Of a stretch of DNA of 64,000 nucleotides, positions 1 through 23,667 are shown one piece after another (within the stretch, counting starts at the first letter, position 1; each line of letters opens with the position of its first letter). The position numbers were made by a program, and so were the translations under genes. The DNA is taken from the IMG/VR virus record IMGVR_UViG_2667527592_000002; one strand, 5' to 3'. The notes below the pieces were generated by a model. The model saw only the letters and a program-made list of their open reading frames with translations, did no database searches and was not told the DNA's origin. This stretch comes from a virus. Lineage: Duplodnaviria; Heunggongvirae; Uroviricota; Caudoviricetes.

Positions 1-280
1 AAGGGTAGCCATTGTTGTATGCCTCATACAGCTGAATCCCGGATGTCCCCTGCGCATTCGACGCCAGAGCAGTTACTCGACCGCGTGATACCAGAGTATT
101 GATATTAATGTCAGCCGAACCATCGAACCTGACGCCATTAATGTTTCTGGCTGTTTTCAATTTCGTCGCGGTATCGGCGTTCCCTGTCAGCGCCCCGGTG
201 ATCCCGCCGTTGAAAGTCTGGCGCGCACTCCATGTGTTAGCCGTGCTCAACAGGGGGATCTTTTCACCGCTGGTACCGAG
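1..280 (-). CDS. tail-fibre variable C-terminal segment, partial (runs off window), no own start codon
   Basis: minus-strand translation reads ...LSTANTWSARQTFNGGITGALTGNADTATKLKTARNINGVRFDGSADINI..., typical Mu/P1 S-type tail-fibre repeats; frame stays open through crossover site. Confidence 0.6.
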
Positions 281-306
281 TTCTCTTAAACCAAGGTTTA
301 GGATTG
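281..306. other. invertase crossover site (hix/gix/cix-like)
   Basis: TTCTCTTAAACCAAGGTTTAGGATTG: two half-sites around central AA, same pattern as hixL TTCTTGAAAACCAAGGTTTTTGATAA (recalled); overlaps invertase stop codon. Confidence 0.6.
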
Positions 307-858
307 AAATGATGACGCCGGAAACTTCTTATAAAGAGTGGAAACAGCCACATCATAGATGATTGCAACCTGCTTACGGGGGATGCCCTTCTCCAGCAAT
401 CGCCGCATTTGCTGCCATGTTTCTTCCTGGTATTTAGGCCGACGCCCACCTATTCGACCTTCTGCGCGAGCTGCATCAAGTCCAGCGCGTGTACGTTCAA
501 CAATAAGTTCACGTTCCATTTCTGCCAGCGCCCCCATTACGTGAAAGAAAAAGCGCCCCATTGGTGTACTGGTATCGATGGAGTCAGTGAGACTCCGGAA
601 GTTAATGCCTCTGTCACGCAGCTCTTCCACCAGCACAACTAAGTGACGCATGCTGCGCCCAAGACGATCTAACTTCCATACGACCAGGGTGTCGCCTCTG
701 GAAAGCATACGGAGAACCTTTTTTAACCCTGGGCGTTCAGCCTTTTTGCCGCTCGCCTTATCCTCAAAAATTAGCTCACATCCTGCGCTTTCAAGGGCGT
801 TTCGTTGTAAAGCGGTGTTTTGGTCATTAGTTGATACGCGAATGTATCCAATAAGCAT
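298..858 (-). CDS. serine DNA invertase (Hin/Gin/Cin/Pin family)
   Basis: MLIGYIRVSTNDQNTALQRNAL... N-terminal catalytic Ser motif, C-terminal HTH ...STLYKKFPAS; 186 aa. Confidence 0.9.
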   Translation of the reverse strand: MLIGYIRVSTNDQNTALQRNALESAGCELIFEDKASGKKAERPGLKKVLRMLSRGDTLVVWKLDRLGRSMRHLVVLVEELRDRGINFRSLTDSIDTSTPMGRFFFHVMGALAEMERELIVERTRAGLDAARAEGRIGGRRPKYQEETWQQMRRLLEKGIPRKQVAIIYDVAVSTLYKKFPASSFQS

Positions 859-963
859 ATGTCCCCCCTTGTATGTTAAGGGGGGAGATTTTAGAAGATG
901 TCCTGTAAGGAAATAACAAACTGACTAAGTTAGTGGCGCATTAGATGTTATTTCTGGAGGGGT

Positions 964-1290
964 ATGTTTGCAGATTATGAAAATCTGGCTGTAGTAGTCA
1001 TAACATCCCTACTAAGTGGAACCGGCGTATTCCTTCTCGGAGTTAGAGACGGGCGCATTTCTGCGTCCCTGCTCAATCTTGCGAGTGAATTGTTTACTGC
1101 GGTAACAGCCGGGCTTGCGGGGTATGGGGTGGCGGTTAGCCAAGAATGGCCTGAAGGTATCATTTTCTGCGTTGTTCTGATTGCCAGTAACAACGGTAGT
1201 GAAATTTTACAGGGCTTGAAGTCCAGAGCTAGTAACGTCTTGAATCTCTTAAGCGTAATAGCGAATGGGGGAAAAGGTGGAGAGAAATAA
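964..1290 (+). CDS. putative holin (LydA-like by position and size)
   Basis: 108 aa, about three hydrophobic helices, RBS GGAGGGG before ATG; first gene of operon next to invertase. Confidence 0.45.
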   Translation: MFADYENLAVVVITSLLSGTGVFLLGVRDGRISASLLNLASELFTAVTAGLAGYGVAVSQEWPEGIIFCVVLIASNNGSEILQGLKSRASNVLNLLSVIANGGKGGEK

Positions 1291-1736
1291 TGGGTAACTT
1301 TGGAAATTATTTCATTTTTATCATGGCATTTGTTGCCATCATTGACCGTTTCATTTTTCGTCGCAAGAGTGTTGAGATTTTGAGTATTGGTGACGCTGTA
1401 GTGAAAGAATCCGCTATAGCATTTCCTGTTTCGCTACGTGTTAAGCGAAGCTGGGTCAGCAATGCTCAAATCGAATATTGGTTGCAAGACCTGAAAAATC
1501 CATCTGTGGTTATTTCAGGGAAAACGCGACCAGTTGACGCCTCAAAACGCGGTGAGAGAGAAGAGTATTTGCTCATCGATACGAAATATCTTGAGCCAAC
1601 GAAGTGGGATCTGAAAGTCACATTGACTAACGGTAACTGTCGACTGAATCCGCTTTATCGCATTTTCCCTATCAATGACTGCATAGAGCGCCAGTTTACG
1701 ATCGAAAAGCGTGAAGGAGACTGGGATGTCAAATAA
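1290..1736 (+). CDS. hypothetical protein (LydB/antiholin position)
   Basis: 148 aa ORF, start overlaps upstream stop; no recognisable motif. Confidence 0.3.
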   Translation: MGNFGNYFIFIMAFVAIIDRFIFRRKSVEILSIGDAVVKESAIAFPVSLRVKRSWVSNAQIEYWLQDLKNPSVVISGKTRPVDASKRGEREEYLLIDTKYLEPTKWDLKVTLTNGNCRLNPLYRIFPINDCIERQFTIEKREGDWDVK

Positions 1737-2346
1737 GAATAATTATGTTCTTCTTAATTATGCTGAATTAAACGAAAAGGGGCTGGCAAAACTCGTCAAA
1801 GAAATCAGCAAAGGTGGTTACAAGATAGCGAGGGTGATCCCTGCAAGTAATGGCAGGAAGAAAGATGGGATCATGACGCGCACGTTTACCCTTATTGGTA
1901 TTGATGAACAGACAATGGAAGTTCAGGTTAACGATACCGGCGATATATCTGGGATCAAACTGAATGGTAAAACAGTACCGTTCAAGCCAGTAAAAACAAT
2001 GTCGGCTTTGGGGCAATCTCTTGCGGCTTTATTTAATCGCGGAGCAACTTCTTTCCAGAAGTCATTAGCTCGAAAACTTGCTCGTGCAGCAAAAAATATT
2101 GATGACGGAAATAAGAAGCGGCAGGGAGTTAAATCTAACGCTCAGAAATTAGCTGAAGCGAAAGAATCACGTGATGCACTCCGTGAAGATATCGCTAATG
2201 CTAACGACAAACTGTCTAAACTCCAGAGCAAGTCAGACAAAGTAATGCAAGATACGGGTAACGTTAAAGCTGCCTTGTCTCAGGAAGTAGCTAAGACACG
2301 TGCTCTTAAAGAAGAAATCGCGCGCCTGGAGGATGAGCATGATTAA
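1726..2346 (+). CDS. hypothetical coiled-coil protein (Hdf position)
   Basis: ORF track 1711..2346; ATG at 1726 preceded by AAGGAG; C-terminal heptad-rich region. Confidence 0.3.
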   Translation: MSNKNNYVLLNYAELNEKGLAKLVKEISKGGYKIARVIPASNGRKKDGIMTRTFTLIGIDEQTMEVQVNDTGDISGIKLNGKTVPFKPVKTMSALGQSLAALFNRGATSFQKSLARKLARAAKNIDDGNKKRQGVKSNAQKLAEAKESRDALREDIANANDKLSKLQSKSDKVMQDTGNVKAALSQEVAKTRALKEEIARLEDEHD

Positions 2347-4264
2347 CAATCCTTTACGAATTAATATTCAGTCTACTTTTGCTGATACGATCCCCGGCTA
2401 TATGCCAAGTCGCTGGTCTTCAGAAGAATTAAGCGAAGATGACCTGATTTTTGAGGCGGCGACCTTAGAAGATATTGAGCTTGCCTATATGGGCAATGAA
2501 ATTCTGGTTGTGTCTGACGAAGCTATGTTTGAGTCCATAACTACAACCAGAATTCGGTTAGCTCAAACAATGCGAGCTTTCGTCCGTGCGCTGAATCGTG
2601 GCCTGAATGGTACGAATATTATGGCAGGGACTGATGAAGCTGGGACCGATGAAAATGGACGTAATTGTATTGGTGGTGCGATTATCGGTCGTGTACGTCG
2701 GGTAGCTAATATCCCTGTTTTGACCGCGCAGATACCGCTTACTGACGGGCAGAGTACAAGCATAATTTTCCACTCTCCAACAGCTGACGGGGCAAAAATA
2801 AAGAGTAACGACGAGCTTGTTGCATTTCAGTTTTTACTTAATAAGCGTAACGTAACTCACGTTGTCGCCCCGATTGGTGGGAGAGATGTTTCTTTAAGCC
2901 AGGTATGCCAGGCGCTATCTAATTTGATTGAGCGTAACAGCGAAAAATTTAAGAAAGCAAAAGAGCGCCAGGACAAAATGAAGGCAGATATTGAGAGTTA
3001 TCTCAATGAAGCAGATAAACTGGCAGAAGAACGGTCAATAATGATTGATCAGGTGGAAGTTGCGCAACGTGGGCTGACTGAAAAGCGTGCTGCTCTTACG
3101 GAGATGCAAAAAAAACTTGATGCCCAGAAAGCCATCAACGAGGAATTACAAGCAAAACGCGATAAATTGTTGTCTGCTAAAGGTGAAAAAACGAAAGAAC
3201 GAGCGTTTAGTGACCAGCTGCGACATGTAAAACATAATCTTGCCATTGACGGAAAAACAGTGCTGGATAATGGCGCTGAAGTTAATTATGTCACGTCCGG
3301 CAGTGATAATTTCGTTACGATAGTAGCACCTGAAGGTAAATTCAGTATTGATGCCAGTGCTGTCAAAGGAGGCAGTTTGGCAGATGCTGCAACCAAATTA
3401 CTTAAAGCCTACCGAGAGCATAACGCAGATAAATATAAAGTTGATGTGTTACCAGGCCAGCTGGAAGACTCCGAACTACCACAGACAGACCCCGAAACGA
3501 ACCCAGTATTACAACCAGAGAGCCAAGATGTAGGTAAATACCACTATGCACTTCAATCTCGCCCGGCTGGTGTTGGTGCTGTTCCGGATGGAAATAAAGC
3601 CGTGCTTGATCGTCCTGACCAGGCTGATCAGTATTACGAATATGCTCGTCACGGTATCATTACGTATGACCGTAAACTGACAGATGAAGAAGTCAGCCAG
3701 TACGAGTTGCTTTATCTTCCTGATGAAGATGAGCTGAAAGATTTTGCAGGCCAATTGGTTGCGTCCAGCATGTCGAAACATATTGATGGCTATGTGGACC
3801 TGTTTGGCAGTGACCTGAAAACATTCAAGGCGCAAGTGAAAATTCTTTTCCGCAAAGCGTTTCCAAACGTGGCGTATCCACTTAGTGATGGGGAGAACCT
3901 TTTCATTATGGACGTGAATAACGCCCTTCAAAATCATTCAAGCGAAGTAAAAACAGAGCATGTGGTTGAGCCAGAATCACAACCACAACCAGCACCAGAA
4001 CAGGAGTCGGAGCCAGAAGAAGCGGGTGAATCAGCAAGTGAAGCTGATCAGGAAGCAGATAAAGCGCTGGAGTACCTGAAATCCGTGCCGGAGCAGTTTA
4101 CATCCCGCGATCTGACGGTCATCAGTGCTGAACTTGATCATGTGCAGGAAGCAGCGAACGCTCTAATCAGTGCAGGTCGATACGACGAGAACGAAGCCAC
4201 TGTGGGTGCAGCAGTTGACTACCTGATCAATATTCTGGCTGAAATTCAGCAGGGAGGTGTTTAA
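2333..4264 (+). CDS. DarA-like large protein (positional and size analogy only)
   Basis: about 640 aa, central coiled coil, acidic C-terminal region; sits in lyd-dar-like operon; start 2333 or 2339 uncertain. Confidence 0.35.
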   Translation: MSMINNPLRINIQSTFADTIPGYMPSRWSSEELSEDDLIFEAATLEDIELAYMGNEILVVSDEAMFESITTTRIRLAQTMRAFVRALNRGLNGTNIMAGTDEAGTDENGRNCIGGAIIGRVRRVANIPVLTAQIPLTDGQSTSIIFHSPTADGAKIKSNDELVAFQFLLNKRNVTHVVAPIGGRDVSLSQVCQALSNLIERNSEKFKKAKERQDKMKADIESYLNEADKLAEERSIMIDQVEVAQRGLTEKRAALTEMQKKLDAQKAINEELQAKRDKLLSAKGEKTKERAFSDQLRHVKHNLAIDGKTVLDNGAEVNYVTSGSDNFVTIVAPEGKFSIDASAVKGGSLADAATKLLKAYREHNADKYKVDVLPGQLEDSELPQTDPETNPVLQPESQDVGKYHYALQSRPAGVGAVPDGNKAVLDRPDQADQYYEYARHGIITYDRKLTDEEVSQYELLYLPDEDELKDFAGQLVASSMSKHIDGYVDLFGSDLKTFKAQVKILFRKAFPNVAYPLSDGENLFIMDVNNALQNHSSEVKTEHVVEPESQPQPAPEQESEPEEAGESASEADQEADKALEYLKSVPEQFTSRDLTVISAELDHVQEAANALISAGRYDENEATVGAAVDYLINILAEIQQGGV

Positions 4265-4632
4265 TGACCATCTCTGTTTTAGACCGCCTGAAATTAGGTA
4301 AAGAGCTATCAGATCTAATGCAGGCGCAGAAAACTGCGCCAGTATTGCAACGCGTCACCATTGGTAAGCAGATTGTTGATGTGATGCTGAAATTGGGCCT
4401 GGGGACTGCCGTGCAACCGGCAGCGGAACCGCAACAACAGGCTGATCCTGTTGTAGATGAAGTCCCTAAGATAGTGACTGACTTCCTGGGCGGTGTGTTC
4501 ACAAAGTCCACACAAATGGAATTTATTGATGCGCTGCGTGGGATCTCAAACTATGTTGGCGAGTTCCTTACGTTGGAGCAGGCTAAAGAGCAGACCATAA
4601 GCTGGGTGAAAGCTAACGGTTATGCCGGGTAA
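4264..4632 (+). CDS. hypothetical protein (DdrA position)
   Basis: 122 aa, ATGA start/stop overlap with upstream gene. Confidence 0.3.
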   Translation: MTISVLDRLKLGKELSDLMQAQKTAPVLQRVTIGKQIVDVMLKLGLGTAVQPAAEPQQQADPVVDEVPKIVTDFLGGVFTKSTQMEFIDALRGISNYVGEFLTLEQAKEQTISWVKANGYAG

Positions 4633-4714
4633 TCAAAAGGGGCTGAAATGCCCCTTTCACTTATCTGTTCTCACATAAATCACACACTTTTTACACTCAC
4701 AGCTTTCTCTATAG

Positions 4715-6112
4715 TTGGAGTGTATTTTGAACAAATCAGTTACTTCTGCGCTTTCCGAGGCCGCAGATATTAACAGCGTCATTGCTCTGGTTTCTTCATT
4801 AGAGAGGAAAGAAACACGCCTGGGGCGAAGTAGCTACGTAGTCACCAGCAAAGGTGCAGAGGTAAAGACGGCTTTTAAGGTCGTTGATGCCAGCAGTCTG
4901 ATCATTTCGAACAACCTTGACGGTACGATTAACCCGGCCTTCCCGGAAGAACTCCAACCACGAGATCGTACCCGGCTATCCAGCAAACTCCAGGTTAACC
5001 GTATTGCCTCCAATTTACGCCCGGCACAATTAACGGATTCCGGTATGAGCAGCCACGGAGCGCCTATAGTTGGTCCGGACAACGTTGTTGAATCCGGCAA
5101 CGGAAGGAGTATGGGTATCTGGCGTGCCTATGAGCAAGGACAGGCGGATGAGTATCGCCAGTACCTGATCGACCATGCGAAAGAGTTTGGTCTGAATCCT
5201 GACGAAATTTCGCAAATGTCTATGCCCGTACTGGTGCGAGAAAGACTCACAGATGTAGACCGCGCTCAATTTGCCCGCGATTCAAACATTAGTGATCTGC
5301 AAGAGATGGCAGCAAGTGAAAAAGCGTATGCGGATGCGCAATTTCTCACTGAGAGTGTCATGGCGCTATTTAATCCTTCAGATGATGGAAATCTGCTGGC
5401 GCGGTCCAATGATGCGTTTATTCGTGCGTTTTTGCGCGAAATTGGCGATACAGCGACGGCAGGCTTGCTTACTGCCGATGGGCGTCCCACGAAACAGCTT
5501 ATCGATCGCATCCAGAATGCAATTTTTGCCAAAGCGTACAAGGATGAAAGGCTTGTTAGGCTGGTGTCGGAAGAGCCAGATCCGGAAATGCGTAATATCC
5601 TGACCGCATTAAATACGGCAGCCAGCGATTTTGCGCAAATGCAGTCGCTGTCTGGCGACGCTCACCATGACGCAGTAACAGGCTTAGTGGACGGTATAGA
5701 GCAGGTTAATGGCCTGGATACACAGGCGATAGCAGCACTCCAAGAAGCAATTAATCTTGTACGTGAAGCCAAAGACAACGGTCAGGCCGTTGAAGAAGTG
5801 ATCGCCCAAAGGGGGTTATTCGGCGACAGTACACCGGAAGCTGAGGCATTGGCGTTATTCATCGTAGCAAATAATCGCAGTGCGAAGCGTATGGGGGCAG
5901 CATTCAAAAAAATGGCGCAAAAAATCAACGACGAGCTGACTCATAAACAACAGGCATTGGGCGATATGTTCGGCGGTGGCGATGTTGATCTGCGTCGTAT
6001 TTTGTCTGCTGTATCTGATGAAATTGAGGGTGAATTTGGCGAAGGGAAAGGTCTGAACTTTGCTATGTTTGAAAATTCTACAGATCTAAATAATTGCCGT
6101 ACGGAAAACTAA
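4715..6112 (+). CDS. ParB/Srx-like N-terminal domain protein (DdrB position)
   Basis: motifs ...EELQPRDR... and ...VESGNGRSMGIWRA... resemble ParB box I/II (QPR and GxxRxxA); alternative start likely. Confidence 0.4.
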   Translation: MECILNKSVTSALSEAADINSVIALVSSLERKETRLGRSSYVVTSKGAEVKTAFKVVDASSLIISNNLDGTINPAFPEELQPRDRTRLSSKLQVNRIASNLRPAQLTDSGMSSHGAPIVGPDNVVESGNGRSMGIWRAYEQGQADEYRQYLIDHAKEFGLNPDEISQMSMPVLVRERLTDVDRAQFARDSNISDLQEMAASEKAYADAQFLTESVMALFNPSDDGNLLARSNDAFIRAFLREIGDTATAGLLTADGRPTKQLIDRIQNAIFAKAYKDERLVRLVSEEPDPEMRNILTALNTAASDFAQMQSLSGDAHHDAVTGLVDGIEQVNGLDTQAIAALQEAINLVREAKDNGQAVEEVIAQRGLFGDSTPEAEALALFIVANNRSAKRMGAAFKKMAQKINDELTHKQQALGDMFGGGDVDLRRILSAVSDEIEGEFGEGKGLNFAMFENSTDLNNCRTEN

Positions 6113-6176
6113 ACCAACCGCTGAAATCACATACTGATTATGCTGCCGCAAAACTGGAAACAATTTGCGGTGATTC

Positions 6177-7859
6177 ATGGCAACGAAAGACAAAAACAAA
6201 GGCTTTCTGTCAGCATTGAAGAAAGCCTTCAACGGTGGTGATGTTACGCCCGCCGATCCGGTCGTTTTTACGAGCGGGCATAGTGTCGTTGCTCGTTCCG
6301 GCCTGTCTGCTTTACGTCCAGGTATACTGGGGAGCAACAGCGATGGCATGACGAGTGCAGCAGATTCAATTTCTTTATCCGCTGAACTGCCCGGCGAGCG
6401 CCTGCAAAAGTACAACATCCTGGAAACGATGGCTAAAAGCCCGACTATCTCGACGGCTTTAAATATTCACATTGCACATGCGCTTGCGCCTTCAAAAAAA
6501 ACCGGACAAGCATTCATCCTTTCGCCAAAGGATGGTTCCGATGCTGAGGCAGTAAGTAGATGTGAAGAGTTAACTGCTGATTTGGGGGCGATGATTAATG
6601 ACGGACTTCCTTCATGGGCCATGATTATGGCGATCTTTGGGGTGTCTTATGTCCGCCCTTATGCTGAACAGGGCAGGGGGATAACAGGCATTGAGTCCAG
6701 TTATTACACTCTGCCACACTTCGTCCAGGAGTTTTATCGTGGTAGCCAGCTGGTAGGTTTCAGTGGTGATTACATCCTGGATACGCATAGTTTGCGCAGA
6801 GTAATAACCGAACCGTGGAATCTGGTTTCCATGAAAAATCCCTATTGGACGCCGCAGCATAAAGTTATTCCGGTCAGCTACGGCACAAAAGGGTACTCAC
6901 TGTTAAGTGAGCAGGCTGATAAGCCGTTAATGGAGACGCAGAATTACGGAACTTCATTCCTTGAATACAGCTATGAACCTTACCTGAATTTATGTGCTGC
7001 GCTCGCCGCGCTGAAATCAACGCGAAATAATGCAGCCAAAATTGACCGCCTGATTGCTCTTACGACGAACACACTGGACCCGGTTAATGCGGCGAACTAT
7101 ACGCGTGGCGTCAGCCAGGCATTGAAGCGCCATAGTGACCTGGTGGCGCAAAGGTCGATTAATGCCAACGCTATTCCGACGGTGCTTAACCACCTGATAC
7201 CTGTTATGGGAGACGGGAAGAACGGTATCACTATTGATACGCAATCCATACCCGCAGATATCAGTGGTATCGAAGACGTTATGTTTCACCTCCGGCAGCT
7301 TGCTGCAAGCCTAGGCATTGACGCAACAATGCTTGGCTGGGCTGATCAGATGAGTGGTGGACTTGGGGAAGGCGGTTGGCAGCAAACAGCTATCCAGGCC
7401 GCATTACGTGCGAACTGGATCAGACAGGCCGCGCAGCGAACTATTTATCGGCTTCATGATATTCACCTCGCTTATAAATACGGGAAGGTTTACACCGAAA
7501 AAAACCGTCCTTATGACGTGCAATTCAACTCAATGAACACTGCTATCCAGGAAGAGGAAAACCGGGAACTGGATGCACGCGCCAACTTTGTTGCTGTCAT
7601 CTCCCAAATTATGGACCAGATCCAGAACAACCCGAAACTGGCTGGTAGTGACGCGTTTATGCGTTATCTGTTCACCGAGCAGTTGCACATCGACGATGAC
7701 ACTCTCAACACCATGATCAAAGAGTTTAAGGCGAATGAATCAGAGCAAAACAACGAGCATGGTATGTACGAATCCGCGCCGTTGTCGTCCGGTGACGATC
7801 CGGAAAACTGGACGCCAGAACAGTTAATAAACTTTGCAAAATTTGTGATGAGCAATTAA
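6177..7859 (+). CDS. putative portal / virion morphogenesis protein
   Basis: 560 aa, size and neighbourhood only; no diagnostic motif. Confidence 0.3.
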   Translation: MATKDKNKGFLSALKKAFNGGDVTPADPVVFTSGHSVVARSGLSALRPGILGSNSDGMTSAADSISLSAELPGERLQKYNILETMAKSPTISTALNIHIAHALAPSKKTGQAFILSPKDGSDAEAVSRCEELTADLGAMINDGLPSWAMIMAIFGVSYVRPYAEQGRGITGIESSYYTLPHFVQEFYRGSQLVGFSGDYILDTHSLRRVITEPWNLVSMKNPYWTPQHKVIPVSYGTKGYSLLSEQADKPLMETQNYGTSFLEYSYEPYLNLCAALAALKSTRNNAAKIDRLIALTTNTLDPVNAANYTRGVSQALKRHSDLVAQRSINANAIPTVLNHLIPVMGDGKNGITIDTQSIPADISGIEDVMFHLRQLAASLGIDATMLGWADQMSGGLGEGGWQQTAIQAALRANWIRQAAQRTIYRLHDIHLAYKYGKVYTEKNRPYDVQFNSMNTAIQEEENRELDARANFVAVISQIMDQIQNNPKLAGSDAFMRYLFTEQLHIDDDTLNTMIKEFKANESEQNNEHGMYESAPLSSGDDPENWTPEQLINFAKFVMSN

Positions 7860-7872
7860 CCGGAGGGAAATA

Positions 7873-8871
7873 ATGCAATCACTGAATACTGTTACGGATC
7901 GCTTCTCCCTGGTAGAGAAAATCCGCAAACACACACCGCAGAACAACCGAAATTACGTCATTCAGTCGGTACGAGACACATTCAACTCGCCAGAAACAAA
8001 AGAGCGTATCGCGCTGGGGGAGATGTATGGTTATTACGGTCATGGTCGCCGGGCGATGCACTATAACAAAACGAAAAGCCTGAACTTGCCGGAAGTCTCT
8101 GTTGTGATGGTAGATGGGAAGCCTGTTGTATTGGAGAATGTGCCGTCAAACAGGACTATCGACATTTCGATTGACGACAACGGCATTGTTACGCATACGC
8201 AGGAAATACTGGATACAGACACCGGGCGTATTGTTCAGGGCATGATTAATTCTGGTGCTGGTGGTTGGTCGTGGGCTACATCTGGTCCAGATTCATCGGT
8301 ATCCCTGGTAAAGTCTTTCCACGGCTTTGATTACGTAACTGTGCCTAACTATATCAGCCTCGACAAGAAAAGCCTGATGCTTGAATCAGCAGAAGAGCGC
8401 GATGCGGCTATTCATGCAGCACTTATCGAACAAGGTTTTACCGATAACGCTGCTACGGATCTGGTTCACCACTTTTCAGCAATGAAAAATCAGCAAGCCA
8501 TGCTCGAATCTGCACATCGTGAAGCCCTGGAATCAGAATTGATGCTCCTTGAAGTGGAAAACATACAGCTTCGAGATAAGCTGCGCGCTCAAACAGCGAT
8601 GATGGAAAGCCAGGGGGAAAATGCAAAGCAATGCCGCCGGATTTTGCGTGACGCTATCCAGGAAATGCCTGTTTTTATCAGCGCAGAACAGCGCCGGGCG
8701 CTCTGCCGTATGCAGTCTGAAGATGATGCCCGCATAGTGGCTGCGATGCTTGAATCTCTTGGGGCAAATGCTACTTATGGCTTACCGGTATCAGGCAAGA
8801 AAGAACCAGAGTTATCACCGAAGGAGAACAAAAACACCACCCCGTTACTCTTCGTTTCTAGAAGGGGGTAA
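7873..8871 (+). CDS. hypothetical protein (head protease/scaffold position)
   Basis: 332 aa, C-terminal coiled coil; position after portal-like gene. Confidence 0.25.
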   Translation: MQSLNTVTDRFSLVEKIRKHTPQNNRNYVIQSVRDTFNSPETKERIALGEMYGYYGHGRRAMHYNKTKSLNLPEVSVVMVDGKPVVLENVPSNRTIDISIDDNGIVTHTQEILDTDTGRIVQGMINSGAGGWSWATSGPDSSVSLVKSFHGFDYVTVPNYISLDKKSLMLESAEERDAAIHAALIEQGFTDNAATDLVHHFSAMKNQQAMLESAHREALESELMLLEVENIQLRDKLRAQTAMMESQGENAKQCRRILRDAIQEMPVFISAEQRRALCRMQSEDDARIVAAMLESLGANATYGLPVSGKKEPELSPKENKNTTPLLFVSRRG

Positions 8872-8889
8872 CCGCCTTGTTAAGTTAAA

Positions 8890-8899
8890 TTTCTAACAT
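8890..8899 (-). promoter_or_regulatory. TGTTAGAAAA-type recurrent motif (candidate operator)
   Basis: tttctaacat on + strand, followed by palindrome gtgtatttatatacac (8901..8916). Confidence 0.4.
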
Positions 8900-8984
8900 A
8901 GTGTATTTATATACACTGTTGATCCTGGTGGATGGGATCGAGTAGGATCGCGGTCACTGCTCCGGTAGCGACTGCCAAAAAAGC

Positions 8985-9009
8985 AAAAGCCGCTGAGAAG
9001 CGGCTTTTT
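8985..9009 (+). terminator. rho-independent terminator
   Basis: aaaagccgct-gaga-agcggctttt followed by T-run. Confidence 0.6.
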
Positions 9010-9071
9010 GGGTGTATAAATCCACTGCCATAGATTTATACGGTAGATAGATTTTTTCACGGAACTATCTG

Positions 9072-10034
9072 GTGAGTATTTTAAATTCAGTTTCAGTAAC
9101 TTTCAACACTTCTGAGTATAAAAACAACACTGAATACCACAAAAAAATCAAAGGTCATCAGTTGAGTTTTTTTGCTCGTCATAGCGGTCTTCTTTCCCCT
9201 TCACATAGCGCCATTATTGCCGAGTTCGCCAACCTGGCAGGGTCTACCGATGAATACATGATCCGTCGCTCATATGCTGATATGTCCGAGATTACAGGAC
9301 GCAGCATTTCTACTGTGCGCCGGGCATTTGCTGAAGCGACGAAGTGCGGAATGCTTGTTAAGCAACATCAGGTAGCGAATAACAATGCCCAGGTGTGTAA
9401 CGTATATCGGTTTACGACACAATTTCTCCACTTCATTCATGTAGCAATGGAGATAGGGGGTAAGCAGGGCATCAAATTTGCCAACGCCACAAAGCTGGTT
9501 AAGCAATTGATTTCAAAGGTACGTTATTTTTTTGAAACTGGGAACCCCCTGTTCAAATTGAACAAGTCCCCCCATGTTCAAAATGAACAGCCAATAGAAA
9601 ATAAGAGTCACTCTATAGCCAAAAGAAGAGAAAGATCATGCGCGGTTCAGCCAAAGGCTTCACTAGCAAATAGTTCTCAAGCGGATAATGGGTGGCTGGA
9701 TAAAAAACCAGTAATCAGGGAAGAACATACCAACCACTGCCTGGCGGCGGCAAAAGCGAGAGCTGCAAAGCGTCGTTCAGACGAGGGGCACGCAAAACGG
9801 CAGGCTCTGTATCGTACCGCTGAAAAGCTGGCAAAAAAATTTGCATGGATACGTAGTGCCGCTACCGCAGTGAATAAGCCTAAACAATCCAGCGCCCTGG
9901 ATTTCTCAATGGATTATTCTGGCTCCCAGGGGTGTGCAACCATTGGTGAAGCCTTTGACCTGATGAAACAGCGTGGCTATCGGTCTGAATTTGACCGTGA
10001 GGATTGGTCAATCCCTGCGGGATTTAGGGGATGA
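9072..10034 (+). CDS. HTH DNA-binding protein, possible lytic replication initiator (RepL-like; speculative)
   Basis: 320 aa; ...MSEITGRSISTVRRAFAEATKCGMLVK... HTH; two internal palindromes TGTTCAAATTGAACA / TGTTCAAAATGAACA at 9550..9589. Confidence 0.3.
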   Translation: MSILNSVSVTFNTSEYKNNTEYHKKIKGHQLSFFARHSGLLSPSHSAIIAEFANLAGSTDEYMIRRSYADMSEITGRSISTVRRAFAEATKCGMLVKQHQVANNNAQVCNVYRFTTQFLHFIHVAMEIGGKQGIKFANATKLVKQLISKVRYFFETGNPLFKLNKSPHVQNEQPIENKSHSIAKRRERSCAVQPKASLANSSQADNGWLDKKPVIREEHTNHCLAAAKARAAKRRSDEGHAKRQALYRTAEKLAKKFAWIRSAATAVNKPKQSSALDFSMDYSGSQGCATIGEAFDLMKQRGYRSEFDREDWSIPAGFRG

Positions 10035-10098: not shown

Positions 10099-10447
10099 TT
10101 AATTTGCTGTTTCTAAATCGGAATGTATGATCTGCATCATCGACTGAAGTCATCCATTGCTGAAATTTTTAGTTGATCTTCCATGTTTTCAGGCTTATAT
10201 TCATGCCGTCGTAGCAAATTCTGCGACCGGGTTTGACAGCCTGAATACTTACGCGGACAACCGCACATTTCCGATATTGCGGTATTTTTGTGTCCGTAAA
10301 ACCACGTTACGCCCGAATTATGGTGGGGCGTGATGGGGAGGCTTCGGCCTGCTGGTTTCGTAAGTGCCAGTCTGTCAACCCTGTCACGTCCTGCCACCTG
10401 TTTGACAGCGGGTCGCAGGTTGTTTATCAACTTACGAGGCCGTAACT

Positions 10448-11584: not shown

Positions 11585-11609
11585 GCCCCGGCCTGGCCGG
11601 GGCTTTTTT
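11585..11609. terminator. bidirectional hairpin terminator
   Basis: gccccggcctggccggggc + TTTTTT between convergent genes. Confidence 0.6.
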
Positions 11610-12244: not shown

Positions 12245-15200
12245 TTGGACAAACTACTTCATTCAATCAGTGAAGCCTCCAGCTTAGGCGAACTGATTGA
12301 AATTGTTAGTCGGTTGCATAAATTACGTGCTGTTGCGACCTTTGGCGTCAGGAAAGCCGATGGCGTCAGTATTCAGAAAACACGCCGGGCAGCAAACAAC
12401 GCCGCAGTAAATCTTCTTAATTCCCTTCCGCCCGGCTTCGATGGGGCGAAATTAACTGACGAACAACGTCAGATTCTTGCCGGGTATACCGGTGAAGGTG
12501 GCCTGACAGATGGTGAGGGCAGCCAATACGAATACTACACGCCACAGTTTATGGCTGAAGGTATATGGGATCTGTTTGCTGACTACGGTATTGATGGTGG
12601 GCACGTACTGGAACCATCAGCGGGCACAGGTATTTTCCAGGAGACAAAACGGCAGGGCATGATAATGACCAGCGCCGAACTGTCTCCGATTTCCGGTCGA
12701 ATAAACCAGCTTTTGCACCCGGAAGACGATGTGAATATCGGGGCGTTTGAGGCGCTGGCGGCGAAAGACGCAATGTATGACCACGCTGTTGGTAACGTAC
12801 CGTTTGGTGAAGGGCGTTCCGGCGTTGCCGGGCTTGATCCGGCATATGCAAACGAGAAGAACGTTGGCAATTACTTTGTGTTGCGCACGATCGACAAGGT
12901 TAAGCCTGGTGGACTAATTGTATTGGTGGTGCCGAATGGCATGACCGATGGTACGAAATACAAAAAATTGCGCGATAAAGTCAGCCGTAAAGCGGAATTT
13001 TTGGGCGCACATCGTATGCCTTCTGGTACGTTCAGCGAATCCGGTACAGATACCGTGGTGGACGTATGGGTATTGCGTAAACACCCGGAAACCTTCCTGG
13101 AGATGATCCCCGACACGGATGATGCAACGCTCAAATCGGCAAACGTCCTTTGGGATACCTTCCTCAAAGGGAAATGGTTTACAACCGAAGGGAAGCGATT
13201 TGTTTACGGCGACATGGAACGCACCAGCTTCCGCAATACCCTGGTGGTGAAAAAGGATGGTCGTGTATCCAATGAGTCGATGAAAACCGCGCTATCTCGT
13301 CGCTTTGATAGTCGCATCAATTGGGATTTGCTCGGCGTAACTACTCAGGCATGGCAGGGCGCGAAAGTGGGCGATAAACGCCTTGTAGGCGGTATCTGGC
13401 ATGAGTTTGATGGCCTGAAATGGGTTAAGGACACGACAACCAAATCCTCCGCGCTTGATGTAAGTCGATATGGTGTTTCGACGTTTGGCGATCTGCAGAT
13501 CGCGTTCCAGTCAACAAACGGGATTCTGGCTTTGTCATGGGACCAGATATCGGCGATCGCGTCCGACTATCCATCGGTTGTCAGTGATGAAGTGGCAGCA
13601 ATGATTCGCTTTGCTGGCAAGCAGCGAGAAAAAGACAGGGAGCGCGTTATGCGCGGTGCGCTGATAGGTCAGTTGATCAACAAGGCACTTGATTTGCGTA
13701 ACCTGGGTGTGAACGTTGATGACAAACTGGCAGATGCATCCCGCCTGGCGGCAGCAGAAGTTGCGAAGTATGGACCACCGCACGCGATTAAGCTGAATGG
13801 GCTTGCTGAAGCTGGCGCTAAAAACTGGATGACGTTCACTGGCAATGTGAAACAGGATGGTTCCACTTCTGACCTTCTGGCAGGGCGACTTGATGTAACG
13901 GATGGTGCTGCCGGTATTGACTTTACCCGTCCTGAACAAGTGATAGCACATCTTTTCAGTGATGTAGCCCTTAATCCTATAACGCTGGGAGACTTTCGTG
14001 AGGCGTTTGCTGGTGAACTGCCAGAGGACGACGACGCGGCCCTTGAATTCCTGGCGAAATTTGATGATATCGCTATTGATGGGTATGGCTGCCTGCTGCC
14101 GATGGACCGCGCCACCAGCGGCGATATTGCAACCAAAACAGCATTGCTGGTGGGCTGGCGTGATGCGTCAATAGGTGAGCAGAAAGCGAACTTTGAGCGT
14201 CAGTTGGCGAAAATCGAAGAGAAACGCATTTTCACGCCACTAAATAAAGTCACCGTTAATCTGAACGCCCGCTGGCTGGATCGCCGCTTGATAAAAGAGT
14301 TCCTGGCAGAGCAGGGCTATGACGAGTTTAAGTACACTGAACCTGATCTGAAGGTCGTCGATGGCATTCTGGTATCTCCGGACGATTACGAAGGTAAGGA
14401 CGGGGTATTTACCGGCTATCAGCTACGAACCGTAAACGGCAAAAACGGGAATGAGTTCAAGAAGGCCAACAATAAAGACGGCTTCCTGAACCAGTTAGAA
14501 AACTACCTGAACGGCGTCAAACCGCGCGGGCAGAACGCTAACGAGTACCTGGATAAGATTGCTCAACTTGAAGTTAGCTTTAACGACTGGTTACGCACTC
14601 ACCCGCAGGCTGATCAGATAGCCCGTGACTATAACGACGCATTCAATGGTTTCATTCCGTTCACGCATTCTGACGCACCGCTTGGCCTGGAAGGGCTTAG
14701 TGGAAAGCGCATTCCTCTTACTTATCAGAATGAAGAAGTTCGGCGCTTGTCAGAAGATGGGCGCGGCATCATGGGATTTGGTACCGGGCTGGGTAAAACC
14801 ACGACCGCGCTTGCGCTTGAGGCGTATAACTTCGAAACAGGTCGCACTAAACGCACGTGTATTGTTGTTCCGAAGGCGGTTTATCAGAACTGGTATCACG
14901 AGGCACAGAGTTTCTACAGTGCTGATGCCTTCGCCAATATGATGTTTATCGGTTTGGATGAAGTTCGTGATGACAGCGGAAATATTCTGACCGCGCCGGT
15001 GCTTGATGAAAATGGCGAACCACGCCTCGACAGTAACGGGCAGCCTCTTACCAGAAATGTTGTGAAAGAGTCCGCCAGCGCCGTTATCGTTCAGCGCATG
15101 AACATGATCCCGTCGTCAAATTGGCGAACGGTCATCATGACAAAAGAACAATTCGCGTCTATCCCGCTACGAGAAAAAACCATCGAGGAGAACTCACAGC

Positions 15201-18200
15201 AAGCTGTCTTTAATGCTGTGGAAATGGGGCGTCTTGACCTGGCGTCCGGTAAACACCGTGATGCGCAGAAGAAGAACAAGATTAAGGATCAGGCCGCGAA
15301 TACCGGTACAACGAAGAAGCAGAATATCCCGTACTTTGAGGATATGAACTTCGATAGCGTGATTGCCGACGAGGGGCATAACTACCGCAACTCCTTTAAT
15401 GCCGGGCGTGAAGCGGGACAACTGGCATATTTGCCTAATCCGGCAGTATCCAAGATGGCCCGCGACATGGCTGTAAAAGCTGCGTACATGATGAAACGCA
15501 ACAACGGGCGTGGTGTAGTCATGCTGACGGCAACTCCGCTGGTGAACAGTCCGATTGATGCCTTCAACATGCTGTCTACTGTCATTCCGCAGGAAGAGTG
15601 GATGCGCATGGGCATCATTACGCCTGATGATTTCGTTCGTGTGTTTGGCAAAACAGCCACAGTTCAGGTCCAGAAAATTTCCGGGGAAGTGGAAGAGAAG
15701 CAGGGGCTGGTGGGCTTCCAGAACCTTGACGGCCTGCGTGGTATTTTCCATCGTTGGACCACTCTGAAGACTGCTGCAGATGTCGGAGCGACGGTTAAAA
15801 TTCCCGACATCATTGAGAACACCTTGCAGATCCCGATGACAGGGGAGCAGGAGACTGCTTATGAAGAGCTTCGTAAGCGTGCTCAGGAGTTAAGTCGCAA
15901 TGATGAGCTGACAGTCGATGAAAACGGGCATATCACTAACGACAAACCAGATGATTTCATCTTCTCCATCATCCGTGACATGGACAAGGTTGCTATAGAC
16001 CCGGATCTGTATGCCAGTGCGATTACATTCCAGTTCCCCGTTGAGCTTGCAGACCAGGTAAAAGCTATTGCTGATGCCTTGCCAAAAGTAGCTGGCGGTA
16101 AAGTGGCAGATGATGTTGATGAGGCCGAGGAAGACGGCGCTGGCGGGCTGGTCAGTACGCGTACCAGCAAGGTAGTGAAGACCGCTTTTAGTGAACATCC
16201 GACGCATGTTGAAATACGTGCCAGCATTGAACTGGAAGCTGAAATACTGAAGGCCATTGCGGCTGCCGGTATTGATATGCAGCAGGTATCGCACCCCATC
16301 CCGCCGAAGTATGCCGCGCTGATCGAAAATCTTCGTGAAGGTCTGAAGAACGGTAAGCAGATCGTCTTTATTGATGAAAAAGCCCAGCACCAGAAGCTGC
16401 GCCGTATTATCGCCAGTGCACTGCAAATGCCGGAGCAGGAGATTGGCATTATCAATGCGACGACAGTTAGCCAGGCTGGCGGCATCAAGCTGAAGAAGGT
16501 GAATAAGCCGACCGAACCTACTCCAAACAAAAACGGTGAATACAAAGAAGGGGCATGGGAAACCTACTACAGCAAACTTGCACAATATGAGGATTATCTC
16601 TCAGCTAAAAATGATGCTGGCCTTGAGGGCATGGAAGGTATTGCCGCCGACTATAACGAAGGTCGCACGCGCATCATAATCTGTAACAAGAAGGCTGAAG
16701 TAGGTATTAACCTGCACATCGGGACAACCGATATCCATCACCTGACACTACCCTGGACACCAGCCAGTATCGACCAACGAAATGGGCGCGGTGCGCGCGT
16801 AGGTTCACCGCAAGAAAAGGTCAATGTTCACTACTATTGTGGCAAAGGCACATTCGATGACTTCCGTCTGGATACGCTGAAACGTAAGAAAGACTGGATC
16901 AAGATGGTGATGACATCCGACATGTCAGAGATCGCCAATGGTGATGCAGATGATGCTGATGAACGCGCCATTATGCTGGCGGCAAACCCGGAAGAACGCC
17001 GCGCAATCATGGCTCGCCAGGCGCAAGAGCGTGAAGAACGTCTGAAACTGAAAGCACAGCGCGAGGCCAACAATGCTCTCGATATCTACCTGAAAGCGGC
17101 AAACGCCGCCGGAAAAGATATCGGCATGATGGAGACAGAACTGAAAAGCGCGATGGAACAGATAGAGTATTACCAGCGCAATCTTGACGACCTGATAAAA
17201 GCGGGTACGAACAGGAATGGGCAAAAATACGCGCTTGAGCAGTTGAGTAGCTACAGAAAACGTGCGCGGGTGCTGCGGTTTGCGATCACCATGGCAAAAG
17301 ACGCGGATACCATAATGAAACGCTCTCGTGGTGATGTGGAGCGCGCTATTAAGTCTGGTGTGCTGGATATCAGTATCGATGTTATTCAGAACCCACAGGA
17401 ATATATGCGCACTGACAAGAATATCCTGTTGCATAAAGGTAGTTATTACCGTGCAGTCATTGATGATCGCGAAACAACAGCGATTGTCCGGGTGGAAAAA
17501 ATTGACGGTGAAAAAGCACAATACATCTGCCGTATCGCCTGGCTGGATAGAGCAAGTCGTTACGCTCGATCACCGGGGTCAATCGTTACATTGCCGTTTG
17601 ACTCTGTGATTGAAGCGGTAACTTTTGAAGAGGGGGTTGCTGAATCACGCGCAACGGCTGCGCGTGGTGTTCAGTGCCACCAGCTATCAACAATACTTAC
17701 TCGCGATCAGTTCTATGATGCTATTCGCAATGGGGTAATGAATGTTATTGCTGGTAAACCTGGTAATGCATGGGGCGGTGGATCAGCTATTAAATACTGG
17801 GCCTATCGCACAGATGATGGGCAGATCGCGCTGTCATCGACCTATGATGGCGTGATAGGCCAACAAATCGGGCGAGCATCGGATATAGCACCTGAACGAT
17901 GGATATATCCTGATGGCAACGACGAGGCGCTGAAGCGTGAAGTGGCAAAAATACAAGCCAGTGATAACCCGCTGAATATCGTGGACGGAGAGGGATTCCT
18001 CCAGGCATTGTATGGGTATGATTACATCCAGGGAATGCAGGCATGGGGCGCACAAGCGACGATGGATGATGTTGCCCAGGAGTTCGAAAACTGGATGGCT
18101 GGGCGTGGTCTGTCAGGTCGTTCGCTTAATAAAGTCACTTCTGAAGATATTCTTAGCTTGTTCCGTAAACCGTCCGGAGAAGGTCTGGAATCATTCTGGA

Positions 18201-19081
18201 GGACCGTGCTGGCATACCGTTTATTCCAGGGCAGGATGAAAGCCTTTAGCAATATCGATGATATTGAACGGATGTTTAATCAGGTCAAGATCGCGAAAAT
18301 TAAGGCGAAGATCGAAAAAACACGTTCTGCGCTGGTGGCCTGGCGCGATGCATTGTTTGAGCAATATAAATCACTCAGTGATGCAGATGGATGGGCGGCG
18401 CTGGAACAGTTGGCGAATAATGGGGTAGATGGAGCGAAACTCGCCATTGTCCAGGCTGATAACCCCCTGGAATCACCGGCAGCACAGTGGATTAAGGTGG
18501 GGGCTGTCATCAATGCATTTGATGAAAAACACATTAGTAAGGACGATTTTGCTGATGCTGTTTCTGTTAATCGCCTGGTAGAAATGGCTACCCGCCGCGC
18601 CCGTGAGTTGAAAGATGGCGACTATGTGAATGAGTTGCCGGATACGCTCAAATCGGCAACGTGGCAGGACTATGTATCGCTGAAAAACGGCGGGGCCACT
18701 GAATCAGAAATCGCGGAAAGGCTTGAGCAGGCTGAAAGCAAAAGAGAAGAGCAGGCGGCAGTGGCTGAAGCCAGAGCTGATGAAGCGGCAAATGATGACT
18801 ATATCATTGTGGTTAATGATAAGCCGATTCGCGCTAAGGCGCGTGTTCGCGGGCGCTGGTGGAGCGTCAGCGAGGACGTTGGCGCGGTTTATCTCATTGC
18901 CGACCAACCAGGTTCCTCGACAATAAGGAACGCCAAAGACGCGATTAAGAAGATTGGCGGGCGTTTCTGGAATTTTGAAGTGAATCCGGTCGCGGATGTG
19001 GACTTTGACCGTCCGGCGTGGATGGTATCTACGCGTTACTCGGTAGATGAACTGCGTAAAATAATCGCCGATGCGGCCTAA
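12245..19081 (+). CDS. darB: DarB-like giant antirestriction protein: N6-adenine methyltransferase + DExH/SNF2-type helicase
   Basis: 2278 aa; MTase motif I VLEPSAGTGIF and motif IV-like GNVPFG; helicase motifs GFGTGLGKTTTAL, VIADEGHNYRN, LTATPLVNS, IDQRNGRGARVG; TTG start. Confidence 0.8.
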   Translation: MDKLLHSISEASSLGELIEIVSRLHKLRAVATFGVRKADGVSIQKTRRAANNAAVNLLNSLPPGFDGAKLTDEQRQILAGYTGEGGLTDGEGSQYEYYTPQFMAEGIWDLFADYGIDGGHVLEPSAGTGIFQETKRQGMIMTSAELSPISGRINQLLHPEDDVNIGAFEALAAKDAMYDHAVGNVPFGEGRSGVAGLDPAYANEKNVGNYFVLRTIDKVKPGGLIVLVVPNGMTDGTKYKKLRDKVSRKAEFLGAHRMPSGTFSESGTDTVVDVWVLRKHPETFLEMIPDTDDATLKSANVLWDTFLKGKWFTTEGKRFVYGDMERTSFRNTLVVKKDGRVSNESMKTALSRRFDSRINWDLLGVTTQAWQGAKVGDKRLVGGIWHEFDGLKWVKDTTTKSSALDVSRYGVSTFGDLQIAFQSTNGILALSWDQISAIASDYPSVVSDEVAAMIRFAGKQREKDRERVMRGALIGQLINKALDLRNLGVNVDDKLADASRLAAAEVAKYGPPHAIKLNGLAEAGAKNWMTFTGNVKQDGSTSDLLAGRLDVTDGAAGIDFTRPEQVIAHLFSDVALNPITLGDFREAFAGELPEDDDAALEFLAKFDDIAIDGYGCLLPMDRATSGDIATKTALLVGWRDASIGEQKANFERQLAKIEEKRIFTPLNKVTVNLNARWLDRRLIKEFLAEQGYDEFKYTEPDLKVVDGILVSPDDYEGKDGVFTGYQLRTVNGKNGNEFKKANNKDGFLNQLENYLNGVKPRGQNANEYLDKIAQLEVSFNDWLRTHPQADQIARDYNDAFNGFIPFTHSDAPLGLEGLSGKRIPLTYQNEEVRRLSEDGRGIMGFGTGLGKTTTALALEAYNFETGRTKRTCIVVPKAVYQNWYHEAQSFYSADAFANMMFIGLDEVRDDSGNILTAPVLDENGEPRLDSNGQPLTRNVVKESASAVIVQRMNMIPSSNWRTVIMTKEQFASIPLREKTIEENSQQAVFNAVEMGRLDLASGKHRDAQKKNKIKDQAANTGTTKKQNIPYFEDMNFDSVIADEGHNYRNSFNAGREAGQLAYLPNPAVSKMARDMAVKAAYMMKRNNGRGVVMLTATPLVNSPIDAFNMLSTVIPQEEWMRMGIITPDDFVRVFGKTATVQVQKISGEVEEKQGLVGFQNLDGLRGIFHRWTTLKTAADVGATVKIPDIIENTLQIPMTGEQETAYEELRKRAQELSRNDELTVDENGHITNDKPDDFIFSIIRDMDKVAIDPDLYASAITFQFPVELADQVKAIADALPKVAGGKVADDVDEAEEDGAGGLVSTRTSKVVKTAFSEHPTHVEIRASIELEAEILKAIAAAGIDMQQVSHPIPPKYAALIENLREGLKNGKQIVFIDEKAQHQKLRRIIASALQMPEQEIGIINATTVSQAGGIKLKKVNKPTEPTPNKNGEYKEGAWETYYSKLAQYEDYLSAKNDAGLEGMEGIAADYNEGRTRIIICNKKAEVGINLHIGTTDIHHLTLPWTPASIDQRNGRGARVGSPQEKVNVHYYCGKGTFDDFRLDTLKRKKDWIKMVMTSDMSEIANGDADDADERAIMLAANPEERRAIMARQAQEREERLKLKAQREANNALDIYLKAANAAGKDIGMMETELKSAMEQIEYYQRNLDDLIKAGTNRNGQKYALEQLSSYRKRARVLRFAITMAKDADTIMKRSRGDVERAIKSGVLDISIDVIQNPQEYMRTDKNILLHKGSYYRAVIDDRETTAIVRVEKIDGEKAQYICRIAWLDRASRYARSPGSIVTLPFDSVIEAVTFEEGVAESRATAARGVQCHQLSTILTRDQFYDAIRNGVMNVIAGKPGNAWGGGSAIKYWAYRTDDGQIALSSTYDGVIGQQIGRASDIAPERWIYPDGNDEALKREVAKIQASDNPLNIVDGEGFLQALYGYDYIQGMQAWGAQATMDDVAQEFENWMAGRGLSGRSLNKVTSEDILSLFRKPSGEGLESFWRTVLAYRLFQGRMKAFSNIDDIERMFNQVKIAKIKAKIEKTRSALVAWRDALFEQYKSLSDADGWAALEQLANNGVDGAKLAIVQADNPLESPAAQWIKVGAVINAFDEKHISKDDFADAVSVNRLVEMATRRARELKDGDYVNELPDTLKSATWQDYVSLKNGGATESEIAERLEQAESKREEQAAVAEARADEAANDDYIIVVNDKPIRAKARVRGRWWSVSEDVGAVYLIADQPGSSTIRNAKDAIKKIGGRFWNFEVNPVADVDFDRPAWMVSTRYSVDELRKIIADAA

Positions 19082-19117: not shown

Positions 19118-19552
19118 ATGACGACATTAATTGACACTGTAAAACCGACGGAATCCTACCTTGAGGACATTTTGCCGCAGGCGCTCAATGGCAGGAGTGA
19201 AGAGGCGTTTCTGGATGCATATCTGAATGGCATGGTGGAAAGGCTGAAACGAGATCCACAGCTTTATCACCTTTATGGGCCGTGGTGGCCTGCGCTTAAA
19301 ACGTTATTGCTGGAGCGCGGCGACATATCATTTGGACAAGTTGTAGATAGTGATGTGGCAGAGATCTACAAAATGAGTCGCCCGGCGCTTACGGTTTTGG
19401 CTGGGCATCTGTATTCGAGCGATCGCCTGGAAAATGACGCGGTATACAATCCCGTTCATGCTCTGGAAGTCGCACCTTATGCTGATGATACAGAGCCATA
19501 CGTGTACACAAGTTACGACGAGTCTATAGAGAAATATCGAATCATGGGGTAG
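19118..19552 (+). CDS. hypothetical protein
   Basis: 144 aa ORF directly after DarB-like gene. Confidence 0.3.
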   Translation: MTTLIDTVKPTESYLEDILPQALNGRSEEAFLDAYLNGMVERLKRDPQLYHLYGPWWPALKTLLLERGDISFGQVVDSDVAEIYKMSRPALTVLAGHLYSSDRLENDAVYNPVHALEVAPYADDTEPYVYTSYDESIEKYRIMG

Positions 19553-23513: not shown

Positions 23514-23589
23514 GATGGTGTAGCTCAGCGGTTAGAGCGGTTGACTGTTAATCAACGGGTCGATGGTTCAAATCCATCCACCATCGCCA
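23514..23589 (+). tRNA. tRNA-Asn (anticodon GTT)
   Basis: 76 nt cloverleaf folded by hand; acceptor GATGGTG/CACCATC, T-loop TTCAAAT, anticodon loop CTGTTAA, encoded CCA. Confidence 0.9.
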
Positions 23590-23591
23590 AT

Positions 23592-23667
23592 GCCGGTTTA
23601 GCTCAGTTGGTAGAGCGCCTGCCTTGTAAGCAGGATGTCAGCGGTTCGAGTCCGTTAACCGGCACCA
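23592..23667 (+). tRNA. tRNA-Thr (anticodon TGT)
   Basis: 76 nt; acceptor GCCGGTT/AACCGGC, D-arm GCTCAGTTGGTAGAGC, anticodon loop CTTGTAA, CCA. Confidence 0.9.

Follow-up and report, generated by a model that had tools for sequence, protein, structure and literature searches.

What is the six-gene operon that stands beside a DNA invertase in the virus record IMGVR_UViG_2667527592_000002 (Caudoviricetes), and what would a ParB-like protein be doing at its end? The DNA analysed here comprises 64,000 nucleotides (nt) of that record and is referred to as the window; the operon occupies positions 964-6112, with all of its genes on the plus strand. It is a Dar/Lyd late operon of a D6-type phage-plasmid whose last gene encodes the ParB/Srx-fold protein DdrB, an identification that is very well supported. 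A probability of about 0.9 is given to the broader reading, in which 964-6112 is the D6-type copy of the late darA operon of phage P1, is carried by a P1-family plasmid prophage and works by the whole of the mechanism proposed below. The operon, the names of its genes and DdrB's ParB-like domain have all been recorded before, and the finding is to that extent ordinary; the short architecture of this DdrB and a motif common to the N-termini of DdrB and DarB are modest additions to it.

Composition of the operon

A first-pass annotation of the window had proposed six co-directional genes of 108, 148, about 207, about 640, 122 and 465 amino acids (aa), laid out like the holin/antiholin and dar operon of P1. 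The six genes are present in the open reading frame (ORF) map, the proposed sizes are off by no more than a few residues and all six products match their P1 counterparts in order. Gene limits were refined from PHROG profile starts, the annotation of phage D6 and the ribosome-binding site. The overlapping stops and starts that had also been described are found at four junctions, which join five genes, with overlaps of 1, 11, 8 and 1 nt; the description fails at the fifth, where ddrA and ddrB do not overlap and are separated by a 94-nt spacer.

The first gene, lydA (964..1290), encodes a holin of 108 aa (phrog_1527, holin, 8e-39) that is 100% identical to its D6 counterpart and whose match to the Pfam LydA holin family falls below the family cut-off. 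It is followed by lydB (1290..1736), encoding the holin antagonist of 148 aa (PF16084 LydB, 1.1e-24; phrog_1898, 3e-69). The third gene, hdf (1726..2346), encodes a DarA paralogue of 206 aa (Pfam DarA_N, 2.8e-17; phrog_1620, Hdf-like, 7e-76); its ATG at 1726 was preferred to a GTG at 1711, phrog_1620 aligning from residue 6 of the longer ORF. In P1, Hdf is an internal head protein and head-size determinant. The internal head protein DarA itself is encoded at 2339..4264 (641 aa; Pfam DarA_N, 4.6e-40, and DarA_C, 9e-19) and is aligned to P1 DarA over 625 aa (E 6e-140). The fifth gene, ddrA (4264..4632), encodes 122 aa matched by phrog_1855 (DdrA-like, 1.6e-49), with no Pfam family match. The operon closes with a short form of ddrB (4727..6112, 461 aa), aligned to residues 2-442 of P1 DdrB and 96% identical to D6 orf25. 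Its ORF opens at 4715 (465 aa) and the start was placed at a TTG 6 nt after GGAG. TTG is also the start codon of darB.

The PHROG families identified along the operon are holin, lysis determining protein, Hdf-like, DarA family, DdrA-like and the DdrB families, with E-values from 1.6e-49 to 0, lydA excepted. By BLASTP the products are 43, 34, 39, 39, 33 and 64% identical to their P1 counterparts in gene order (E 1e-21 to 0). The order lydA-lydB-hdf-darA-ddrA-ddrB on one strand, beside cin and the invertible tail-fibre segment, matches the P1 and D6 tables, and the same six-gene order was identified in ten further elements, P1-like contigs of ~85-95 kb that include Pantoea, Leclercia-like, Vibrio and Photobacterium members.

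The six-protein Dar set (Hdf, DarA, DdrA, DdrB, DarB and Ulx) is complete in the window. The gene darB (12245..19081, plus strand) encodes a methyltransferase and SNF2 helicase of 2278 aa (Pfam N6_Mtase, SNF2-rel_dom and Helicase_C), 43% identical to P1 DarB over 2000 aa. It is followed by ulx (19118..19552, plus strand), whose 144-aa product is 46% identical to P1 Ulx (E 2e-43) and corresponds to D6 orf14, annotated 'Ulx-like'.

The closest known system is phage D6 (NC_050154), where orf30-orf25 are annotated as homologues of P1 lydA, lydB, hdf, darA, ddrA and ddrB in the same order. The products are 92-100% identical in aa to those of the window (DdrB 96%), and the TTG start and the 94-nt spacer are the same. 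In megablast searches, positions 900-6200 are 96% identical to D6 at the nt level with 99% of the query covered, and match 120 plasmid records from Escherichia, Salmonella and Shigella. The D6 identity and the plasmid matches together therefore make the window part of a D6-like, P1-family plasmid prophage. Identity reaches at least 99% in 39 of the 120 records, nearly all of ~92 kb, and 119 of them are typed as non-mobilizable. Among 5,426 complete E. coli genomes ddrB was identified in 99, plasmid-borne in every case. RefSeq E. coli plasmids label it 'hypothetical protein' despite matches to PF18763 and to P1 DdrB, and the practical gain of the finding is the correct annotation of this gene.

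The darA operon of P1 has the same six genes in the same order beside cin, with darB and ulx present and all products homologous, although five of the genes reach no more than 33-43% identity. It differs further in having lydC, which is lacking between cin and lydA and elsewhere in the window; in a gap of 12 nt before ddrB, where the window has the structured 94-nt spacer; and in the orientation of darB, divergent from prt in P1 and downstream on the same strand in the window.

The ParB/Srx-fold domain of DdrB

The last protein had been singled out as ParB-like, without being tied to any described Dar component. It is DdrB, which belongs to the six known Dar proteins. Its identity is already settled, DdrB being a virion protein (PMC9024508) whose ParB-like domain was named in 2017 (PMC5512222). 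This 'DdrB-like ParB domain' was defined from P1 DdrB by Iyer et al., who described a conserved pocket arginine and the late-gene virion context of the domain (PMC5512222).

In the window the DdrB-like ParB/Srx-fold domain is encoded at 4850..5245 (plus strand) and is matched by PF18763, 'ddrB-like ParB superfamily domain', at 144.2 bits (2.6e-42) against a cut-off of 27.6 bits, over profile positions 2-120 of 121. A structure model of residues 28-196 alone (predicted local distance difference test, pLDDT, 90.2; predicted template modelling score, pTM, 0.86) has the alpha+beta fold of ParB/Srx, as the first-pass annotation had anticipated. Both sequence motifs on which that annotation relied are present, QPRDR at 4955-4969 and GNGR within ESGNGR at 5090-5107 (ESGNGRSMGIWRA begins at 5090); the tryptophan of the 'WRA' it placed after the latter is not conserved among 44 homologues. 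In the alignment of these homologues, which extends down to 43% identity, QPRDRxR and ESGNGR are invariant blocks, including R79 and R81 of the first and R127 of the second. R127 is probably the pocket arginine, a placement made from the motif alignment and not from superposition.

A search for PF02195 (ParBc), recommended in the same annotation, was negative even when the domain was searched by itself with E allowed up to 10; DdrB and ParB are linked only at the level of superfamily and fold. Searches of PDB sequences with DdrB, both with the single sequence and with a profile, gave only chance matches (E >0.5). The canonical CTP (cytidine triphosphate)-binding domains of ParB, KorB and PadC, and sulfiredoxin, are 8-15% identical to it, and where canonical ParB has GERR (the GERRxRA box) the window DdrB has GNGR. 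Neither the helix-turn-helix, parS-binding domain nor the dimerisation domain of canonical ParB was detected in DdrB by Pfam or fold search; no ParA accompanies it and its neighbours are virion genes.

The domain is followed by a conserved all-helical C-terminal domain (5261..6046, plus strand; helical in the model), which is kept in 44 of 44 DdrB homologues. Its invariant residues are N382, R384, S385 and F415, its invariant blocks include NNRSAKR and GDMFGGG, and searches of Pfam, of PDB sequences and for a specific fold gave no match to it.

A DdrB without the peptidase half

The DdrB of P1 has 995 aa and the one in the window 461, the C-terminal 545 residues of the P1 form being absent. 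The HExxH peptidase motif of P1 DdrB (WHELGHHLE) sits in the missing half, and residues 441-995 of the P1 protein have no homologue anywhere in the window by tblastn. The C-terminal HExxH metallopeptidase that polyvalent proteins carry in the same polypeptide is accordingly lacking, the protein ending at residue 461. It resembles the PF18763 polyvalent proteins of Iyer et al. 2017 in HMM (hidden Markov model) match, fold, pocket arginine and late-gene virion context, and differs from them in being a 'solo core' without effector or peptidase domain, not itself polyvalent.

The peptidase was proposed by Iyer et al. to process P1 DdrB before packaging (PMC5512222). The short form lacks the metallopeptidase half, and self-processing by that domain therefore cannot be needed for the core function. 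Peptidase-free DdrB was identified in many elements, either as the core only (437-485 aa) or with InPase, LPD3 or ART additions, and the conserved unit is therefore the N-terminal helix, the ParB domain and the helical domain. Between the D6-type and P1 proteins this core is 64% identical, above its operon neighbours (33-43%) and the portal protein (50%). A natural DdrB without the peptidase half thus defines the conserved core of the protein.

An N-terminal motif common to DdrB and DarB

The N-termini of DdrB (NKSVTSALSEAADINSVIALVSSL) and DarB (DKLLHSISEASSLGELIEIVSRL) of the window are alike. The motif covers residues 2-28 of DdrB (4730..4810, plus strand), where it is a candidate capsid-targeting or DarB-docking element, and residues 2-26 of DarB (12248-12322, plus strand), where it was identified by hhalign and HMM. 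Its core can be written x-[IVL]-x-x-[AS]-x-[ST]-[IVL]-x-x-[LIV]-[LIV]-x-[LIV]-[IVF], an amphipathic helix of ~25 residues, and the DdrB model has helices at residues 3-11 and 15-26.

The likeness was measured on DdrB/DarB pairs taken from ten elements. The best ungapped 15-mer within a pair exceeded composition shuffles at p <=0.012 in five pairs and at p <0.1 in seven. Profile-profile comparison by hhalign of 43 DdrB with 10 DarB N-termini gave a score of 27.7 (P 1.3e-5, probability 80%, 28 columns), whereas the 45 control comparisons, made with the N-termini of eight other gene families of these elements against both profiles, with reversed profiles and with 17 internal DarB and 10 internal DdrB blocks, all scored 14.0 or less (P >=0.012). 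The N-termini of Ulx, DdrA, Hdf, DarA, Prt, Pro, LydA and LydB did not match the motif, the best P being 0.012 (DdrA). A leave-family-out HMM, made solely from DdrB N-termini and run against all 790 ORF segments in the six frames of the window, found residues 2-26 of DarB at E 1.2e-4, with the next match at E 1.5.

In P1 DarB's N-terminal 30 residues suffice for capsid targeting (Gonzales et al. 2022, PMC9024508), and it is precisely this stretch to which the N-terminus of DdrB aligns across the ten elements. Targeting has been demonstrated only for P1 DarB. Gonzales et al. obtained no consensus among Dar N-termini by BLAST (PMC9024508), and among the papers searched there was no report of a signal common to DdrB and DarB; the common motif is possibly new. 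It offers a concrete candidate, open to test, for a packaging signal common to Dar proteins, of relevance to protein delivery by P1-like capsids.

Two claims can be joined here: that the helix, which varies in concert in the DdrB and DarB of each phage, is a common capsid-targeting or docking signal of the P1 family, and that the short DdrB is a minimal packaged nucleotide-binding effector which dispenses with peptidase processing. This combination is held tentatively, a little short of even odds. The motif could instead be a helix by which DdrB and DarB dock to each other, and not a signal for a common receptor.

Proposed mechanism

By orthology with P1, the operon would be transcribed late in the lytic cycle. 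A putative late promoter of the P1 type lies upstream of lydA at 927..947 (plus strand), with a -22 box AAGTTAGTG at 927-935 and a weak -10 (ATTAGA or TTAGAT); this candidate resembles the annotated LPdar of P1 (AAGTTACTT-N4-TACCAT) and lies at a similar distance from lydA. Lysis would be timed by the holin LydA and the antiholin LydB. Hdf and DarA would bind the procapsid interior and set head size, and DdrA and DdrB, followed by DarB and Ulx, whose genes lie 6 kb downstream, would be loaded onto them. The Dar proteins would finally be ejected with the DNA, shielding it in cis from type I restriction.

DdrB itself would work in three parts. Its N-terminal amphipathic helix may take DdrB and DarB to the same head site, or may dock DarB. 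The QPRDR...ESGNGR pocket of the ParB/Srx domain may bind, and perhaps hydrolyse, a nucleoside triphosphate (NTP), or may bind DNA after ejection, and would not serve plasmid partition. The third part would be the conserved helical domain. Nucleotide binding by the QPRDR/GNGR pocket and the function of the motif common to DdrB and DarB are speculative; the binding, and a targeting role for the N-terminal helix, are both hypotheses with partial support.

The scheme follows what has been described for P1, and it is from P1 that late expression, packaging, ejection and a role against restriction are inferred for the D6-type operon. The six Dar proteins of P1 are packaged stepwise, and DdrB was recovered from virions with 39 peptides at 59.5% coverage (PMC9024508). 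Without Hdf or DarA the other Dar proteins are excluded from P1, loading being stepwise onto these two (PMC12810830). Dar acts in cis on the packaged DNA (PMC12707154).

Several observations weigh against these readings. Expression, packaging and antirestriction are transferred from P1 proteins that are only 33-64% identical. The match to a late promoter is weak, its -10 being poor and its box not above chance elsewhere in the window: a loose pattern of the P1 late-promoter box has 40 sites in the window with no useful enrichment, the exact lydA box has no second good copy, and in more distant relatives the box is missing, the regions upstream of their lydA genes having no common motif. For the N-terminal motif, the DdrB/DarB pair of P1 itself is the least similar of the ten and not significantly so (score 17, p 0.31). 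The reciprocal HMM, built from DarB only, ranks DdrB first among the non-self matches at a weak E of 0.18. Finally, P1 DarB with residues 11-30 deleted is still packaged, although deletions of 16-30 and 21-30 are not (PMC9024508), and the helix is therefore not simply required.

Alternative roles for DdrB

The alternative that survives best, although it is unlikely, takes DdrB for a purely structural adaptor for loading DarB, with the ParB-like fold a dead scaffold and the N-terminal helices of DdrB and DarB pairing with each other. Same-element DdrB/DarB pairs do outscore different-element pairs (mean 25.4 against 21.5, permutation p 0.008), as would be the case for co-evolving partners, darB follows directly after ddrB in one relative (L010), and P1 DdrB is listed as a protein that 'aids DarB addition to capsid' (PMC9024508). 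The invariance of QPRDR and ESGNGR over wide divergence argues instead for a ligand or catalytic site. Solo DdrB-ParB domains are moreover fused to lysozyme, methyltransferase and other effectors in phages that have no P1-type DarB nearby.

Set beside the adaptor, a metal-dependent DNase is clearly the less probable role. The ParB/Srx domain would then be injected and act like the ParB-like nucleases of pNOB8, Osa or Atu1540, its target being the DNA of the host or of a competitor, or else restriction complexes that have stalled on DNA, with no nucleotide sensing. A free DNase packed next to the phage's own DNA would be hazardous. The best matches of the domain are KorB and PadC, ParB-family proteins that are known as CTP binders. 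Iyer et al. favour sensing or degradation of NTPs over a DNase activity, since no other DNase domains accompany or replace the domain (PMC5512222), and in P1 ddrB is non-essential for plaque formation, with no DNA-damage phenotype reported (PMC10695390).

That DdrB could be a second, divergent partition or DNA-sliding ParB, a CTP-switch clamp on the prophage plasmid, is very improbable: the fold is ParB-like, and QPR and GxxR stand at positions reminiscent of ParB boxes I and II, but the PF02195 match, a detectable helix-turn-helix or dimerisation domain and an adjacent ParA are all lacking, the gene lies in the late virion operon in every relative, and the P1 protein is found in virions (PMC9024508) and is non-essential (PMC10695390).

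Regulatory sequences

The 94-nt spacer between ddrA and ddrB is structured, with two hairpins at 4626-4667 and 4692-4724 (feature limits 4626..4724, plus strand). The spacer RNA folds at -34.9 kcal/mol (z -5.96), and none of 200 shuffles is as stable. The second hairpin is base-paired with GGAG, the ddrB ribosome-binding site; its sequestering of this site suggests that translation of DdrB is damped or regulated. The first hairpin has no T-run and was not called a terminator.

In a scan of 700-6400 for sigma-70 promoters and intrinsic terminators the counts were at or below shuffle expectation, and an Rfam search identified no RNA family within the operon. A further G/C-rich hairpin (CCCCCCUUG...UAAGGGGGG) lies at 862-889, between the start codon of cin and lydA. 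Read on the minus strand, the hairpin overlies the ribosome-binding region of cin; read on the plus strand, it has AGAUUUU after it.

Variable site downstream of ddrB

The 3' junction of ddrB (6073..6123, no strand assigned) is an empty cargo site of 51 base pairs (bp), whose flanks, 1-6072 and 6124-9200, align to D6. Between the same flanks, and before prt, D6 has 1110 bp with two extra genes, orf24 (DUF4145) and orf23, neither of which was found elsewhere in the window. The left edge of the junction falls inside the last ~13 codons of ddrB, where the window differs from D6.

This slot is variable in P1-family elements (8192-9301 in L001; downstream of ddrB in L005-L014). In P1 the cargo after ddrB comprises hxr, isaB and IS1. 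Other elements carry a DpnII/MboI-like nuclease, IS605 TnpA/TnpB, a toxin-deaminase, parAB, StbA or CHAP.

Neighbouring genes

The invertase that had been reported beside the operon is real: a cin-type serine DNA invertase is encoded at 298..858 on the minus strand, divergent from the operon (Pfam Resolvase, 3e-51, and HTH_7), and is 98.9% identical in aa to P1 Cin. Its counterpart in the D6 record is cin, adjoined by cixL, and in D6 the operon lies between these two genes and prt and pro. In the window prt, the portal gene (6177-7859, plus strand), and pro (7873-8871, plus strand), both named after the D6 annotation, are 50% identical to P1 Prt and 44% to P1 Pro. The identity of cin to P1 stands against just 33-64% for the adjacent genes (964-8871), which points to a sharp mosaic boundary and a probable recent exchange of the invertase/tail-fibre module.

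Farther along the window two copies of C4 antisense RNA were identified, at 10316-10401 and 50427-50514. The a1b1 target of one of them is at 10195-10247, upstream of icd/ant-like genes, and the second copy adjoins an isrK-like small RNA at 50304-50382. Four clustered tRNA genes, Asn-GTT, Thr-TGT, Ser-TGA and Met-CAT, occupy 23514-25121 on the plus strand. Just upstream of darB and divergent from it lies a CHAP-domain ORF of 161 aa (11609-12094, minus strand), whose D6 counterpart is annotated 'baseplate hub subunit and tail lysozyme'; the relative L011 has a CHAP gene as well, after ddrB.

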